A program made the position numbers and the translations under genes. From Prochlorococcus marinus str. MIT 9211 (lineage in GTDB: Bacteria; Cyanobacteriota; Cyanobacteriia; PCC-6307; Cyanobiaceae), in the NCBI RefSeq assembly GCF_000018585.1, contig NC_009976.1, positions 343,982 through 367,981 of the forward strand: a stretch of DNA of 24,000 nucleotides. The letters run 5' to 3'. Of the stretch, positions 8,314 through 13,424 are shown in pieces; positions within the stretch are counted from its first letter, which is position 1, and each line of letters starts with the position of its first letter. Below the pieces are notes generated by a model. The model did no database searches, had not been told where the DNA came from, and saw nothing but the letters and a program-made list of their open reading frames with translations.

Positions 8314-9054
8314 ATGAAAGAGATGCTTAGGAATAAATCTATTTATCAATACCTATTGCTAATATCTGTAGTATTATTATTGATTTATAGCCATTATCTT
8401 TTTGATGAAGGGTTCATTAATAATTTTATTCAAGACAGTCACGTCAAGTTTGCTAATGCTGGAATTCTTACTGCATTATTAATATTCTTTTTGAGGTTTA
8501 TCAGTATTGTAATTCCAATATTGCCTGGGACATACTGTTCTATTCTGGCAGGGTATTTTTATGGAATTGAGACAGGCTTATCGCTTATATTTGCAGCTGA
8601 TTTTATTTCATGTGCGACTTCTTTCTTGATCTCGAGAAAGCTAGGCAGGGGTGTCGTAAGAACAATTTTGGGATCGAATCAAATGAAAAGAGTGGAGTCA
8701 ATAAGTCAGAAATATTTAGAGAAGAACTTCTTTTTAATGACTGGTTTATTGATGACGCAATTCTTTGACTTTGTTTGTTATGCGATAGGTCTAACAAAGG
8801 TAAAATGGAGTAAATTCTTCCCAGCCCTAATTATAAGTATAATTATATCAGATGCTCCTTTTGTTTCAGGTGGGTCTGCGCTTAAGAATATAGGGATTGT
8901 AAGTCTAAGTGAATTATTAAATGGTGATGTTCAGGTACTTAAAGGGCCGGAATTGACAATCTTTATAGGTTCCGTTGCCGCTATATTTTCTCTTGGTGTT
9001 TTGAGTAATTTTCTCAATAAAGATGCTAATTTCCATCAAAAGGATGAACCTTAA
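8314..9054 (+). CDS. TVP38/TMEM64 (DedA-related) family membrane protein
   Basis: 246 aa with multiple TM helices. The segment VIPILPGTYCSILAGYFYG resembles the conserved re-entrant loop of the SNARE-associated/DedA superfamily. Confidence 0.6.
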   Translation: MKEMLRNKSIYQYLLLISVVLLLIYSHYLFDEGFINNFIQDSHVKFANAGILTALLIFFLRFISIVIPILPGTYCSILAGYFYGIETGLSLIFAADFISCATSFLISRKLGRGVVRTILGSNQMKRVESISQKYLEKNFFLMTGLLMTQFFDFVCYAIGLTKVKWSKFFPALIISIIISDAPFVSGGSALKNIGIVSLSELLNGDVQVLKGPELTIFIGSVAAIFSLGVLSNFLNKDANFHQKDEP

Positions 9055-9149
9055 AAGGTTGGCAAATGGTTTTGCATACTTTTTTACAGAATAACCTTTT
9101 ATTTAATTATAAGTTTAAATTTCAGAGTCCATAAGATTTTCTGTCTTAC

Positions 9150-9551
9150 TTAATCAAAGCCTGTAAATAACTCTTTATGAACGGCAAGATAATCATATAG
9201 AGCTGTCCTCGATTCTGGTGATAATGGCGTACCATCAATATTCCTGGTTGCACTACATATAAGGTCCCCATCCCATTTTACATTGTGTTCACTAATGGAT
9301 TGCGACCATTGCCGAACTGCTTTAAAATGGTCTGGCATGTACTCTCCAATCTTTCTGCATACCTCACAAATAATTGATAATGCAGGTGGTTTTGAGCTCA
9401 TTCTGAGATCTTTTACAATCATTGGTTGTGAGAAAACACCTGTATATCTTATGTAATCAATTAATTCGTACTCTTTATCTGATAGACCTGCCAGTTCCAT
9501 TGCCTTAATAAACTCTTTTAAAGGAGTGATAGGCCTAAGAATAGTTTTCAA
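9150..9551 (-). CDS. hypothetical protein
   Basis: 133-aa ORF, clean and non-overlapping. No recognisable motif. Confidence 0.45.
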   Translation of the reverse strand: MKTILRPITPLKEFIKAMELAGLSDKEYELIDYIRYTGVFSQPMIVKDLRMSSKPPALSIICEVCRKIGEYMPDHFKAVRQWSQSISEHNVKWDGDLICSATRNIDGTPLSPESRTALYDYLAVHKELFTGFD

Positions 9552-9661
9552 TGTAAGAGATTAATTTTTAATGAATTACTTTGATATTATCAGGGACTGC
9601 AGTTATATACTTAGAAAACTATTTTAAATAGCTGACAAGCAAGATTGATTAGTTATTGTGA

Positions 9662-9937
9662 ATGAGACGATCTTTTACTTTGCATAAGCTCAATCTGCTT
9701 TTGACAATGATTCTTGTTCCAGCTTCATCGGTGTTATTTAGCTGTGCAAGAGAACCACATAAAGGTGCTACGCCTGCTCTCTTTAATACTAAAGCCGAAG
9801 CTGAAAAAGCTGCTAAGGCTTTCAATTGCAGTGGAGCCCATAAAATGGGTGAGAAGTGGATGCCTTGCAAGAGTCATAAAACCCATCAAGGGGATACGAA
9901 GCATAGTGGTAATGGGATTAATCATCACAACCATTAG
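9662..9937 (+). CDS. putative lipoprotein with C-x-G-x-H-K-M-G-x2-W-M-P-C motif and His-rich tail
   Basis: 91 aa with ATG start. Signal peptide ends in a lipobox-like VLFSC. The motif is FNTKAEAEKAAKAFNCSGAHKMGEKWMPCKSH, which I recall as the Pfam DUF3721 'WMP' type. The tail is HKTHQGDTKHSGNGINHHNH. Confidence 0.65.
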   Translation: MRRSFTLHKLNLLLTMILVPASSVLFSCAREPHKGATPALFNTKAEAEKAAKAFNCSGAHKMGEKWMPCKSHKTHQGDTKHSGNGINHHNH

Positions 9938-9955
9938 ACCATTGGTACATTATTC

Positions 9956-10387
9956 ATGACTAATCCAATCCAGCCTGAATTAGATAGTCCTACCCATTGC
10001 GGCAGCAAACCCAAAAAAATTGCAATTGGTATAGCTCCATTAGGTTTTGTTTCCATTGGGATTGTGCCGATGGGAATTGTAACTATAGGAATAGTTCCAA
10101 TGGGGGTTGTATCTCTTGGAGTAGTAGCGATGGGAGTCATTAACGCTTCAATAGTAGGAATGGGAGTTCTCTCTGCTGGTATAACAACTATGGGCCTCAA
10201 GGTATGGAGCCCAGAAGGACAATTTGTTCGTCAAAATCTTGAGAGTTCAGAGTCTGCTTTAAACAATATTTATGCCTACCCAACAAAATCAAAGGCTGAA
10301 GAAGAGGCTAAAAAAATGGGTTGTTTAGGCGTTCACAAGATGGGTAGTCTATGGATGCCATGCTCAACTCATGGAAATATTAAATGA
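9956..10387 (+). CDS. membrane protein with hydrophobic pentapeptide repeats and a C-terminal WMPC motif domain
   Basis: 143 aa. It has eleven 5-residue units (IVPMG-like) preceded by a 4-residue partial unit, followed by YPTKSKAEEEAKKMGCLGVHKMGSLWMPCSTH. That motif is paralogous to the one in the upstream ORF. Confidence 0.6.
   Translation: MTNPIQPELDSPTHCGSKPKKIAIGIAPLGFVSIGIVPMGIVTIGIVPMGVVSLGVVAMGVINASIVGMGVLSAGITTMGLKVWSPEGQFVRQNLESSESALNNIYAYPTKSKAEEEAKKMGCLGVHKMGSLWMPCSTHGNIK
10019..10195 (+). repeat. 15-nt-periodic intragenic tandem repeat (encodes [IV]-[VT]-x-[MIL]-G units)
   Basis: IAIG IAPLG FVSIG IVPMG IVTIG IVPMG VVSLG VVAMG VINAS IVGMG VLSAG ITTMG. The periodicity also creates a mirror ORF on the opposite strand (9934..10200). 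Confidence 0.8.
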
Positions 10388-10580
10388 CTTTTTATGATGG
10401 ATATTTTGATGAATAGCTTTCAATTCTTTATCTAAATATTGTCAAAGCTTTTAAACGCTGATCGAAGTGAAGGTATTTACTATCTAGTTGCTTTTGCTCC
10501 CCTCTAATTAGGACTTTCTTTACTTTTTATTCGCTAAAATATTTATTTAGATTGATAAATGATGTTACTTTGAAAACTCT

Positions 10581-11210
10581 TTAATATACTAGAGCTACGC
10601 AAGAGAAAGCAACTCCTATCCCAATTAATATTCCAGCATTTAATATTTTCCCATTTTCTCCGATCAAACTAATGACTCTTTGAGATACTCCTGTAACTAT
10701 TAGCAGTAGAGCGCCTTGGGCGATAAGCAGTCCTAAAAAATAGCTGATTAAAGGCGTAGGTTCGGCTCCAATGATTGTGCTCCCAAGTAAGTAGCCGTGC
10801 AAGGAGAACATAGGCAGGAGCCATTGTGAACTGAGATATTTGAGAATAATTAAGCCTTCTATAGCTAAGGATAATGAGACAAGTGCTTCAGCCCAAGGTT
10901 CTAGTAAATCAGGTAAAGGGAGCACTTGTGAGAATGCGCTTCCACCTAGACCAACAGCAATTAGGTTTAAACACCATTTCTTAGGTTTTCGTAAGCCAAC
11001 AAAGGCAATTGCCAACATAAAAATTAAGTGATCAGGTCCAAGTAATGGATGTCCAATTCCACTTAACAATCCTTGCAATGTTGATAATTGAGAGGTGCCT
11101 CCCATTTCAAAAGGGTGATGAGCAAAAGCTGATTTGTTGTGACCAAGCAAGAGTAATAAAAGGAATATTCCTGATGATGCCAAAGTTTTTCGTATCAGGT
11201 GTAGCCGCAT
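10581..11210 (-). CDS. hupE: HupE/UreJ family Ni/Co transporter
   Basis: 209 aa. Signal peptide is followed by AHHPFEMGG, then the GHPLLGPDHLIFMLA signature and about 6 TM helices. Confidence 0.8.
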   Translation of the reverse strand: MRLHLIRKTLASSGIFLLLLLLGHNKSAFAHHPFEMGGTSQLSTLQGLLSGIGHPLLGPDHLIFMLAIAFVGLRKPKKWCLNLIAVGLGGSAFSQVLPLPDLLEPWAEALVSLSLAIEGLIILKYLSSQWLLPMFSLHGYLLGSTIIGAEPTPLISYFLGLLIAQGALLLIVTGVSQRVISLIGENGKILNAGILIGIGVAFSCVALVY

Positions 11211-11475
11211 GAATTGATCCTCTTTGTATTGTAATTAGGCCGATTGCAGACCAAGATTGATAATCTCGATACTTCTCAGTTTACTGATAGCAGCAGATTC
11301 TATCCGGACTTCCTTTTGCATTAATGCATGATCTGCATTGGGGCCTCATTTCTTTTTCAATATAATTACTTTTGGCCGAATAAAACAAGAATGTTTTATA
11401 GCGGACTTTTTTTTACCTTTCTTATTCCAAACCGGCTGGTGAATATCTTAATCTCAGGGAACAACATACTGATGA

Positions 11476-11850
11476 ATGCGTAGCGGCAGCATGAAGGACG
11501 AAGCAATCTCTTTTAAGGATCTAAGCAAAGCGCAATTGGATGCTCTTAAGGATCTCTATATTGATAGTCGTGTGGACTCAATGCCTGAGATTGAGCTCAG
11601 AAAGTTTGTAAAAGAAGTGCTTGATCTTCAAGTGAGAGGTACTGTTGGGAATGAGGAAGAAAGAGAAGTTTGGAAAGAAATGAAAGATCACTTTGAGGAA
11701 AACTTTGAGGAAAAAATCAAAGCAGTCATCAAAGATAAGGGATCAGAAGAAGTAGTCCTGCCTCCGGAGGAAGAAGAATTCAAAAAGAGACTTGAAGTAT
11801 TGGAGCAACGAAAGAAAGAAGACAGTGAGAAGAATGTTGATATGTGGTAA
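11476..11850 (+). CDS. highly acidic hypothetical protein (island-associated family, copy 1)
   Basis: 124 aa with ATG start. The C-terminal 71 aa (RGTVGNEEEREVWKEMKDHFEENFEEK...NVDMW) are 62/71 identical, by my count, to the ORF at 15063..15293. Confidence 0.65.
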   Translation: MRSGSMKDEAISFKDLSKAQLDALKDLYIDSRVDSMPEIELRKFVKEVLDLQVRGTVGNEEEREVWKEMKDHFEENFEEKIKAVIKDKGSEEVVLPPEEEEFKKRLEVLEQRKKEDSEKNVDMW

Positions 11851-11886
11851 GACCTTCCTACTGTGTGAATACATTTGAAAAATTAA

Positions 11887-12135
11887 TCACCCTCTATACC
11901 CCAGTGGGAATCAGTAGTAGAGCGTTATAGAACTGATTATTTTTATGAGAGTTATGAGTATGAGTATTCGAAAGGGAATAAAAGTTATGAGTGGAGCGAT
12001 CAATGTTTTCATAATCAGGAAGAATTATTAGAGTTCTTGGGATATGAAATGATAGAAGATTTAAATGCTGATGCTGTCTATGCCAGAAGAATAAAGAGCT
12101 TTACTGATGAGGATAAAAAAAGTTTATTGACTTAA
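11887..12135 (+). pseudogene. 83-codon open frame without a usable start codon (possible gene remnant)
   Basis: The frame is open from the TAA at 11884 to the TAA at 12133 (SPSIPQWESVVERYRTDYFYESYEYEYSKGNKSYEWSDQCFHNQEELLEFLGYEMIEDLNADAVYARRIKSFTDEDKKSLLT). There is no ATG/GTG/TTG in the first 52 codons. Confidence 0.3.
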
Positions 12136-12289
12136 GTAAGAATGGATATCAAATCAAAGTGATTGGGATTTGATTTTGTATAAAGCCAATGTTCACTTTT
12201 CATTAGCCAGTTGAAAGCCCTATGAAAATAGTCTCAATAAAAGATTTTTAAAAATATATTGAATTATAGTTTAAGAATAACCTTTACTT

Positions 12290-12391
12290 TTATAGATATA
12301 TCTTTAATAAATATCCAGTTGTTGAAAAGGATAGCCATGTAAAGGCGGTGATTGATAGTACAAAGAATACTATTTGATCTATAGCTTGCAT
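12290..12391 (-). CDS. 33-aa single-TM peptide downstream of the psbF-like gene
   Basis: ATG at 12391, sequence MQAIDQIVFFVLSITAFTWLSFSTTGYLLKIYL, stop at 12290. Starts 17 nt after the stop of the upstream ORF on the same strand. Too short for the ORF track. Confidence 0.4.
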   Translation of the reverse strand: MQAIDQIVFFVLSITAFTWLSFSTTGYLLKIYL

Positions 12392-12408
12392 CTTATTCAT
12401 AACTCTAT

Positions 12409-12711
12409 TTACCCTACAAAGAGTCCCCTTCTAATGAATTGCATTGCAAATATTGCTCCTAAAAAGAAAACAGTAGGAATCCCTAATGCATTTACAGCAA
12501 GAGTTCTTACAGTGAAGACTGGATACCCTCCACTAGGTCGATTGTTAGGGATGACACCGCTATCCTCCCAGTCTTGAATATTCTCAACATTTGGGAACCC
12601 AGGGAGAGTTTTGTTATCCCATTTCAATACTCCCCAAACAGAAAGCCATATTATGGTTGAAATTATTGAGATTAATATTGGCGAGATTACTAATAGAATT
12701 TTAAAAAGCAT
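12409..12711 (-). CDS. cytochrome b559 beta subunit (PsbF)-like protein with N-terminal TM extension, heme-ligand His replaced by Asn
   Basis: Residues 63-95, [33 protein letters not shown], align with my recollection of canonical cyanobacterial Psb[34 protein letters not shown]. The codon at 12490..12492 is AAT (Asn74) where PsbF has the axial His. An extra ~60 aa lie N-terminal, including a TM helix. Confidence 0.8.
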
Positions 12712-12824
12712 CTGTAATTAATTAACTCATATTCAATATCTAGCATCAAGCCTTAATGCCTAATGCAAAGAAGTTATCAATTTAATGTTCTATTTCCTAC
12801 CAATAATTGTGTCCATGATTATTT

Positions 12825-13424
12825 TCATCCAAAGGGGCTTGTACCTTTCAAAGGTCCAACAAAGAGTATTTCCATGACAACACCAGTTATTGCAAAAGGT
12901 AAGACCCATATAGACAAGAAAAGTGGTCCAAAGAATCTTATGGGACTAGACCCTTTGAAGACTTTCTGACTAGCTGTAAAGATTGTCTCAGCTTTAGTAA
13001 TTGTATATTCTGTTTCTTGATAGGGCCTTACAGGGTTTGTAGAATTTACTATTTCTCTAAGTTTATTAATAGCAATAATAGGGAATGACCAAATTGCCAT
13101 AAAGCGAGGCCCTAGCCAATTTCTAGGATGAGGGAATGCAGCACTTTCTAAAGGCCTCTCGCTAGGGAATGCTGATTCTATGGATTTAACAACATCTTCA
13201 AAGTGAATAGAGCTTTGAGCTTCAATCTTTCCTTTGGCCAACATCTTATCTGATTGAACTGACACCTCTTCTTGTAAGTGAAGCACTTCATTATCTATAG
13301 AAGTCTCTTCAGAAGCCAAAGATATCGAGCTAAATGCGGCTTCTACAGATGACGGATCTTCCATTTCAGGTTGAATATTTTGAACAATATCTTTCCTCAG
13401 ATTTGATTCTTCCTTGCTGTCCAT
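12825..13424 (-). CDS. hypothetical membrane-associated protein (acidic N-terminus, hydrophobic C-terminal half); weak PsbE-like strings
   Basis: 199-aa ORF directly upstream of the psbF-like gene. The C-terminal TM is IRFFGPLFLSIWVLPFAITGVVMEILFV. By-eye resemblance only: RFMAIWSFPIIAI / FTASQKV versus PsbE RYWVIHSITIPALFIAG / FEAKQQV. Confidence 0.6.
   Translation of the reverse strand: MDSKEESNLRKDIVQNIQPEMEDPSSVEAAFSSISLASEETSIDNEVLHLQEEVSVQSDKMLAKGKIEAQSSIHFEDVVKSIESAFPSERPLESAAFPHPRNWLGPRFMAIWSFPIIAINKLREIVNSTNPVRPYQETEYTITKAETIFTASQKVFKGSSPIRFFGPLFLSIWVLPFAITGVVMEILFVGPLKGTSPFG

Follow-up and report, generated by a model that had tools for sequence, protein, structure and literature searches.

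A 24,000-nucleotide stretch of the Prochlorococcus marinus str. MIT 9211 genome (NC_009976.1, positions 343,982 to 367,981; hereafter the window) encodes two adjacent small proteins, T1 and T2, that share the Pfam domain DUF3721 and that, from their sequences and gene context, probably act as an extracytoplasmic metal-handling accessory of trace-metal importers rather than as a service to HupE specifically. The identity of the domain, its conservation, the pairing of T1 with T2 and the association of these genes with metal importers and Zur, both in genome neighbourhoods and within operons, are established. We tentatively favour a fuller model, to which we give somewhat less than an even chance, in which T1 and T2 are paired envelope metal-binding proteins that would capture Zn(II), and possibly also Co(II), and hand it over to an importer. 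The function proposed in this model, including topology, metal binding, metal identity and hand-over, is read from sequence, predicted structure and gene context. The relevant features, in window positions with the evidence for each, are as follows (ORF, open reading frame).

9662..9937, + strand: T1 (ORF1), 91 amino acids; ORF list, Pfam PF12518 and family alignment
9782..9880, + strand: DUF3721 domain of T1, residues 41–73, FNTKAEAEKAAKAFNCSGAHKMGEKWMPCKSH; Pfam
9875..9934, + strand: His-rich C-terminal tail of T1, HKTHQGDTKHSGNGINHHNH; sequence
9956..10387, + strand: T2 (ORF2), 143 amino acids; ORF list, Pfam PF12518 and PF01744
9995..10003, + strand: His-Cys-Gly motif of T2, followed by KPKK; conserved columns
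10019..10198, + strand: hydrophobic repeat of T2, residues 22–81; GLTT match and invariant columns
10277..10372, + strand: DUF3721 domain of T2, residues 108–139, YPTKSKAEEEAKKMGCLGVHKMGSLWMPCSTH; Pfam
10581..11210, − strand: HupE/UreJ-family permease gene, 209 amino acids, convergent with T2; Pfam PF04955

T2 lies 18 bp downstream of T1, and the two genes are probably co-transcribed. An initial annotation, made from the DNA sequence alone, had described two ORFs with a shared 'WMPC' motif and a convergent hupE/ureJ gene at these positions. All three ORFs lie and point as it had said, both translations fit the motif it quoted, and the family number it had given, DUF3721, is correct, with PF12518 matching T1 at residues 41–73 (E = 2.5e-17, 62.7 bits against a cut-off of 27) and T2 at residues 108–139 (E = 1e-18, 67.2 bits against 27). 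NCBIfam returned no match for T1, T2 or the HupE ORF of the window.

The domain is strongly conserved. Alignments of 24 to 71 sequences show no variation at the columns C, G, H, W, M, P and C, and T1 and T2 each contain WMPC; near-invariance extends to M, G and the final His. At least 90% of members keep M62 and M67 (T1 numbering), and the picocyanobacterial alignments are uniform at W66. The candidate ligands in T1 are C56, H60, M62, W66, M67, C69 and H72. AlphaFold predicts a bridge residue, a helix (residues 44–53) and a hairpin (59–62/65–68) for the T1 domain with a predicted local distance difference test (pLDDT) score of about 80–86, and the same helix-plus-hairpin fold for the T2 domain at a pLDDT of 86–89, so that two independent predictions agree. 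The C-x3-H...C-x2-H pattern brackets the predicted hairpin, with the last His often missing in phage versions, and the strand register suggests that C56, H60, M62, M67 and C69 share one hairpin face with H72 nearby. A sequence profile search of the PDB with the domain found nothing at E ≤ 1, and two Foldseek searches against the PDB gave best E-values of 2.5 and 6.9, which are not significant. A defensin- or toxin-like reading was discarded: the structural matches fall short of significance, there are two Cys only, and the gene context does not fit.

T1 comprises, in order, a signal peptide, a lipobox with Cys28, a short linker, DUF3721 and the His-rich tail. That it is a predicted lipoprotein with a His-rich end, as first annotated, was borne out: its signal peptide ends in the lipoprotein pattern [LVI][ASTVI][GAS]-C, read in the window as VLFS-C28, with an unusual Phe at −2, where nearly all homologues have L-[IM]-G-C. 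HHHxH tails recur in the family alignment. Among 280 short single-domain members, at least three His follow the domain in 223 (80%), which ties the His-rich tail to the family as a whole; His is the last residue in 212 (76%), and 97% have a His three residues past the second Cys. The database copy of T1 is shorter, with 76 amino acids from Met16 (start at 9707 rather than 9662). The 91-amino-acid reading from 9662 is probably the true one, because the upstream ATG supplies a positively charged n-region, MRRSFTLHK, and a better signal peptide. Separately, some high-GC T1-like proteins, including that at L161:1690-2001, carry HHVPGD right after the signal peptide; the sequence resembles the HHPF(E/G)MG start of mature HupE (window 11118-11132) and may represent a shared N-terminal metal motif.

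T2 anchors the motif to a long hydrophobic repeat, again as initially described: twelve pentapeptides (x-x-x-G-x), equivalent to six decapeptides, lie upstream of the C-terminal DUF3721 domain. An x-Met-Gly is invariant at residues 39, 49, 59, 69 and 79, and the exact 10-residue Met-Gly spacing is found in 39 of 40 T2 proteins. The region matches the GLTT repeats of PF01744 (E = 1.3e-17, 63.4 bits against a cut-off of 21), a family defined on nematode proteins of unknown function; the match probably reflects Gly/hydrophobic pentapeptide composition, not common descent. AlphaFold gave no confident structure for the repeat (pLDDT below 50). Ahead of it, H14, C15, G16, P19 and K20 are invariant in 35 T2 sequences, and the HCG motif, with the family pattern H-C-G-x-K-P-K-K, occurs in 36 of 40 T2-type proteins; the positive-inside rule places this end, by prediction, in the cytoplasm. 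A His-rich linker (HNHH) precedes the domain in most T2 homologues; the T2 of the window lacks it. The window T2 is 53% identical to that of a 67% G+C picocyanobacterial contig, the repeat being nearly unchanged between them, and at the sequence level the conservation of T2 exceeds what a passive anchor needs. As a side observation, a third small ORF between T2 and hupE (L056:10664-10885, also in L055, L058, L059, L029 and L039) copies the hydrophobic Gly pentapeptide region of T2 without DUF3721.

The domain itself is widespread. Its profile matched 384 clusters (50% identity) at E ≤ 1e-3 among 1.84 billion representatives, and 1366 proteins at E ≤ 1e-3 in a set of 5.8 billion, most of them from marine and freshwater picocyanobacteria (with Prochlorococcus and Cyanobium names) and small, being either secreted proteins or lipoproteins.

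To follow gene context across relatives, as the initial annotation had proposed, we examined 80 genome loci (79 from Prochlorococcus), 80 metagenome loci biased to high G+C and several Pfam-annotated contigs, with counts by G+C class drawn from 54 high-GC and 115 low-GC loci (169 in all). T2 comes directly after T1 in about 55 of the 80 genome loci, and in high-GC relatives they overlap. A metal gene, meaning any of hupE, znuA/B/C, zur, ArsP_1, TIGR03943 or COG0523 within 5 kb, was present at 32 of 54 high-GC loci (8 of 11 when both flanks reach 3 kb or more) and at 40 of 115 low-GC loci (31 of 69 with such flanks). DUF3721 genes thus recurrently adjoin metal-import genes, far above chance, where chance is our own estimate, rather than a computed value, of two or three such metal clusters per 2-Mb genome.

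The association takes several forms. In the first, found at about 28 Prochlorococcus loci, a divergent porin gene is followed by T1, T2, fam1 (a 205-amino-acid protein of unknown function), znuB, zur, znuC and znuA, and then by genes for COG0523 and a beta-propeller protein, which makes up the zinc cluster that Barnett et al. described (PMC3323870). In the second, hupE is the neighbour: convergent with the pair, as in the window (L011, L033, L055, L056 and L058), divergent from it (L020), or co-directional as T1-T2-hupE (L084/L085), znuB-T1-hupE-hupE2 (L161) or znuC-znuB-T1-hupE (L109/L110). The third is an operon of T1, T2, an ArsP_1 permease, a TIGR03943 subunit, a 441-amino-acid unknown and a Fur-family gene, with ZnuA divergent (L088, L096, L136 and L107), in which start and stop codons of successive genes overlap. 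Its Fur-family protein matches the crystal structure of SynZur from Synechococcus WH8102 (7NE9) at E = 2e-47, and operons with this SynZur homologue were seen in L088, L096 and L136. L096 continues on the same strand with a COG0523 GTPase, HupE and an OprB-type porin, and has two more ZnuA-type systems upstream. In the fourth, seen in many high-GC contigs, T1-T2 is convergent with a Som-type porin gene. Altogether, four or more unrelated gene orders show the importer association, and the lineages concerned span about 30% to 69% G+C. Co-location with zur and znuABC is a feature of these relatives, not of the window itself, which holds no znu or zur gene.

Two genes of the relatives' clusters deserve description in their own right. 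A truncated Som-type porin (NF033921, 'iron uptake porin', 96 bits) is encoded divergently from T1 at L004:8512-9711 (− strand) and 23 other Prochlorococcus loci, although the window lacks it. In place of the usual N-terminal region it has a His-rich stretch and repeats of Met-Gly-Gly, GGGDHKGHHDHHDSHMKMGD...MGGMGGMGG; the Prochlorococcus porin starts with HHDHHxxHMNMGD and continues as (MGG)n. From its sequence it is a candidate metal-selective outer-membrane entry. The second, fam1 (for example L019:10756-11373, − strand), is a conserved protein of 205 amino acids that, at 40 low-GC loci, always lies between T2 and znuB. Its N terminus is ribbon-helix-helix-like (weak DUF6364 and YlcI/YnfO matches) and Cys residues abound in its C-terminal half (C..C, CPQP, G-x-CCCS). 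NikR is built in a similar way, and by analogy fam1 could respond to metal and regulate T1-T2 and the porin, genes without Zur boxes.

The survey bears directly on the proposal, made in the initial annotation, of a periplasmic metal-capture pair feeding HupE with Ni or Co. The link to metal transport is supported; dedication to HupE is not, since znuB-zur-znuC-znuA-COG0523 neighbours are commoner. The adjacency of hupE in at least four arrangements in distant lineages, the assignment of its family to Ni or Co transport and the COG0523/CobW-like GTPases of the same clusters are what such a dedicated pair would predict, and a cobalt-import role has been predicted for the hupE of marine cyanobacteria (PMC4284471). 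The window gene belongs to this family by Pfam (PF04955, E = 2.3e-17, 63.5 bits against a cut-off of 23, 171 of 179 profile positions) and has a signal peptide followed by HHPFEMGG...GHPLLGPDH, in keeping with the N-terminal HHP...GHPxxGxDH of the Ni/Co permeases. However, hupE lies within 5 kb at only 9 low-GC and 13 high-GC loci, with znuABC/zur or ArsP_1 at more; T2 also occurs alone, and T1-T2 occurs in genomic islands without hupE. Neither of the marks used in the literature, a urease or hydrogenase link or a cobalamin riboswitch, was found for the HupE of the window: the window has no B12 riboswitch (none upstream of hupE at the gathering threshold or at E ≤ 5), no other Rfam element lies near hupE or T1, and no urease or hydrogenase Pfam match occurs among the window ORFs scanned (8314-13424). 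Ni/Co was therefore dropped as the preferred metal, the context favouring Zn (perhaps Co) and other features Cu, and we regard a pair dedicated to HupE as improbable. Unlike the known permeases, the hupE of relatives sits in Zur/ZnuABC/COG0523 clusters, so its substrate may differ; the window HupE is 61% identical to that of the znuB-T1-hupE cluster of L161. The picocyanobacterial HupE clade may thus belong to a Zur-linked uptake network and not to Ni enzymes.

Among candidate metals we rank Zn (or Co) first, Cu second and Ni/Co for HupE third. Zn or Zn/Co is favoured because of Zur operon membership, ZnuABC/COG0523 adjacency, the poly-His tails, the Cys2His2-type pattern and the predicted cobalt role of HupE. 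In the model we favour, T1 and T2 would be co-expressed and display the same 33-residue mini-domain on the periplasmic side, a helix packed on a beta-hairpin bearing Cys-x3-His ... Trp-Met-Pro-Cys-x2-His, with T1 attached by its lipid anchor and T2 held in the inner membrane by the hydrophobic repeat. A scarce divalent metal would arrive through a dedicated porin and be gathered by the His-rich segments; the Cys/His site would keep it and hand it over to an inner-membrane importer, which would be HupE in the window and an ArsP_1/TIGR03943 permease or ZnuABC in other picocyanobacteria.

Several observations weigh against this model. Many Prochlorococcus copies, including those in island-like regions, have no metal gene nearby (a fifth context), and T2 is solitary between hisS and an exonuclease gene at 22 loci. 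Locus counts overstate independence, because many Prochlorococcus loci are near-identical in synteny through shared ancestry; weight therefore attaches to the number of different arrangements, not of loci. NCBIfam leaves the nearby ZnuA-like binding proteins ambiguous between Mn and Zn, and boxes with at most two mismatches to a Zur box occur in 6.8% of T1 upstream regions, compared with 6.9% of random windows. The two Cys could form a structural periplasmic disulfide and not a metal site, and we found neither a solved homologue nor an experimental study of DUF3721 proteins; a literature search returned no paper mentioning DUF3721 or TIGR03943. Finally, the conserved Met and Trp, fusions to Ctr and to multicopper oxidase, and the Met-rich N terminus of the porin point to Cu over Zn.

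This last set of features would be accounted for if DUF3721 were a Cu(I) site of Cys, His and Met with a nearby Trp, as in CusF, and if T1, T2 and the porin imported or buffered copper. Plastocyanin and cytochrome oxidase require copper, a metal of high toxicity to Prochlorococcus. Besides the near-fixed M62 and M67 and the invariant W66, T2 offers five invariant Met-Gly at 10-residue spacing, and the N terminus of the Prochlorococcus porin resembles those of CopB/PcoB. A eukaryote-like marine transcript (L218:39-1229, protein P0214, Tara metatranscriptome run ERR1719198) encodes DUF3721 as the extracellular N terminus of a Ctr copper transporter, followed by a His/Met motif and with MxxxM and GxxxG present. 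A giant secreted protein of Cyanobium sp. NAT70 (P0243, 1851 amino acids, with 16 further cluster members, 17 in all, on many contigs) combines two multicopper-oxidase domains, FG-GAP repeats, one DUF3721 and RTX calcium-binding repeats. But no P-type ATPase, CopZ/Atx1, CusF or CopC/D lies beside T1-T2, and the identified neighbours are all Zn/Mn/Co/Ni-type importers and Zur; the Ctr fusion comes from a single contig, a homology search with it returning only itself, which leaves its recurrence unproven; and poly-His tails are more typical of Ni/Zn/Co proteins. Met and Trp may moreover be structural, perhaps core residues only, with an ancestral Cys/His site as for Zn, because the cytoplasmic phage versions in XkdF-type proteins keep both. 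A copper-specific system is, on balance, unlikely, albeit the strongest competitor to the Zn(II) model.

Those phage versions are themselves an unexpected occurrence of the domain: DUF3721 lies inside proteins of 340–446 amino acids with an XkdF-type serine protease domain (Peptidase_S78_2) on 48 viral contigs (L170-L217, for example L172:3392-4615). Other phage-like proteins carry two DUF3721 copies, and in P0183 the domain is joined to a 2'-5' RNA ligase/Acb1-like domain. A further variant, at L066:9911-10390, is a secreted protein of 159 amino acids with three tandem DUF3721 domains on a contig labelled as an Asaia bogorensis metagenome-assembled genome; the label is doubtful because the neighbouring gatB, coaE and argJ and the sequence look picocyanobacterial.

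DUF3721 could also be a small disulfide-stabilized alpha/beta module for structure or interaction, in which case T1 and T2 would have some other role in the envelope and their proximity to metal genes would be inherited synteny. Its presence in XkdF-type protease proteins that have no metal role, the one Prochlorococcus protein in which it is fused to a thioredoxin-like domain, and the cysteine-stabilized alpha-beta peptides that were its sole, non-significant, structural neighbours all suit such a module, as do the many loci from which metal genes are missing. Inherited synteny, however, fits poorly with importer association across that range of unrelated gene orders and G+C contents and with operons showing translational overlap, and a purely structural role makes it hard to explain the invariant His and near-invariant second His, the His-rich flanks in T1 and T2, and the Ctr and oxidase fusions. 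We accordingly consider a non-metal function improbable, about as much so as service to HupE alone.

Regulation was examined through the conserved palindrome AAAATGATTATCGTTTT in the Prochlorococcus znuC-znuA spacer, using a matrix from 25 such boxes and a 13-mer consensus on 162 upstream regions. No Zur box (AAAAYGATWATCRTTTT-like palindrome) was found upstream of T1 in the window or at most loci. In L088/L089, a box identical to the Prochlorococcus znuC-znuA box at 15 of 18 bases lies within the znuA/T1 spacer, and L008 has a one-mismatch box upstream of T1. Direct Zur control is plausible only in some lineages, because boxes are not enriched, the window has none, and they appear only in L088/L089 and L008. 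The paper on the WH8102 Zur regulon reports three uncharacterized Zur-repressed neighbours of znuABC. A 5-1-5 palindrome, TGATATTATCA, 70 bp upstream of T1 was ruled out as an element, since related loci do not conserve it. At L049:9370-9391 and in about 20 sibling loci, the 3' portion of the divergently oriented hisS coding sequence contains GAAATGTATACATTTC, a perfect palindrome of 16 bp that lies about 310 bp ahead of the solitary T2 gene.

We compared the pair with known systems. Like ZinT (YodA) and the His-rich loop of ZnuA, it offers a small extracytoplasmic His-rich part near znuABC/zur, thought in those proteins to pass Zn to the importer; unlike them, DUF3721 adds Cys, T1 is predicted to be lipid-anchored with a membrane-embedded paralogue, and no Pfam, NCBIfam or PDB relationship was detected. 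CusF, CopC/PcoC and PCuAC are likewise periplasmic, use Met/His ligands (Trp in CusF) and hand metal to a membrane transporter, but they are beta-barrel or cupredoxin-like proteins of about 90–120 residues, whereas DUF3721 has 33 residues, a predicted helix and hairpin, and two Cys. Pfam, NCBIfam, PDB profile and Foldseek searches gave no homology of DUF3721 to CusF, CopC, PCuAC or ZinT. The porin of related loci shares with CopB/PcoB an outer-membrane barrel after a disordered His-/Met-rich segment; its barrel, however, is of the cyanobacterial Som/'iron uptake porin' type, and homology to CopB/PcoB was ruled out by sequence. The fold and the two-protein organization differ from every characterized periplasmic metallochaperone, and the family, although named in Pfam, is uncharacterized.

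T2 has one further parallel. Its predicted layout recalls Ctr1, a copper transporter that has Met/His motifs in its ectodomain, a pore lined by Met and a cytosolic HCH: T2 would combine an outside His-rich linker and metal-type domain with regularly spaced membrane Met and an inside HCG, and one eukaryotic Ctr has DUF3721 as its ectodomain; T2 differs in having no Ctr family match and a Gly pentapeptide/decapeptide repeat in place of three canonical helices with MxxxM. By this analogy, T2 might be a minimal metal-conducting membrane protein of a new kind, in which the periplasmic linker and DUF3721 would act as receiver, the five Met-Gly as a ladder and the cytoplasmic HCG as exit, with T1 as donor and the His/Met-rich porin as entry. 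We consider this a long shot; if true, it would constitute a complete unknown route for a soft metal (Cu, or Zn/Co) through the picocyanobacterial envelope.

In the waters inhabited by Prochlorococcus and marine Synechococcus, free Zn, Co and Cu are at picomolar levels. For these organisms, the analysis gives a very abundant uncharacterized domain family a concrete hypothesis and identifies a conserved partner set: the His/Met-rich porin, T1, T2, HupE or ArsP_1/TIGR03943, Zur and COG0523. The route of these metals through the envelope is a recognized gap, and for zinc at the outer envelope of cyanobacteria the literature reports that there is no known mechanism (PMC3323870).

The window as a whole has a G+C content of about 0.33–0.40 outside the rRNA region and contains a 23S-5S rRNA operon and typical picocyanobacterial genes. 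The ORF at 9150-9551 (− strand), of 133 amino acids and without assigned function, has no Pfam match above threshold. It shares 66% identity with an ORF that in L020 is the immediate neighbour of hupE; hupE is found there on the opposite flank of T1-T2, implying that related strains differ by a local rearrangement. At 12409-12711 (− strand), the window encodes a 100-amino-acid 'long form' cytochrome b559 beta subunit (NF002717, 182.8 bits), about twice the normal length of PsbF and solitary, away from psbE/L/J.

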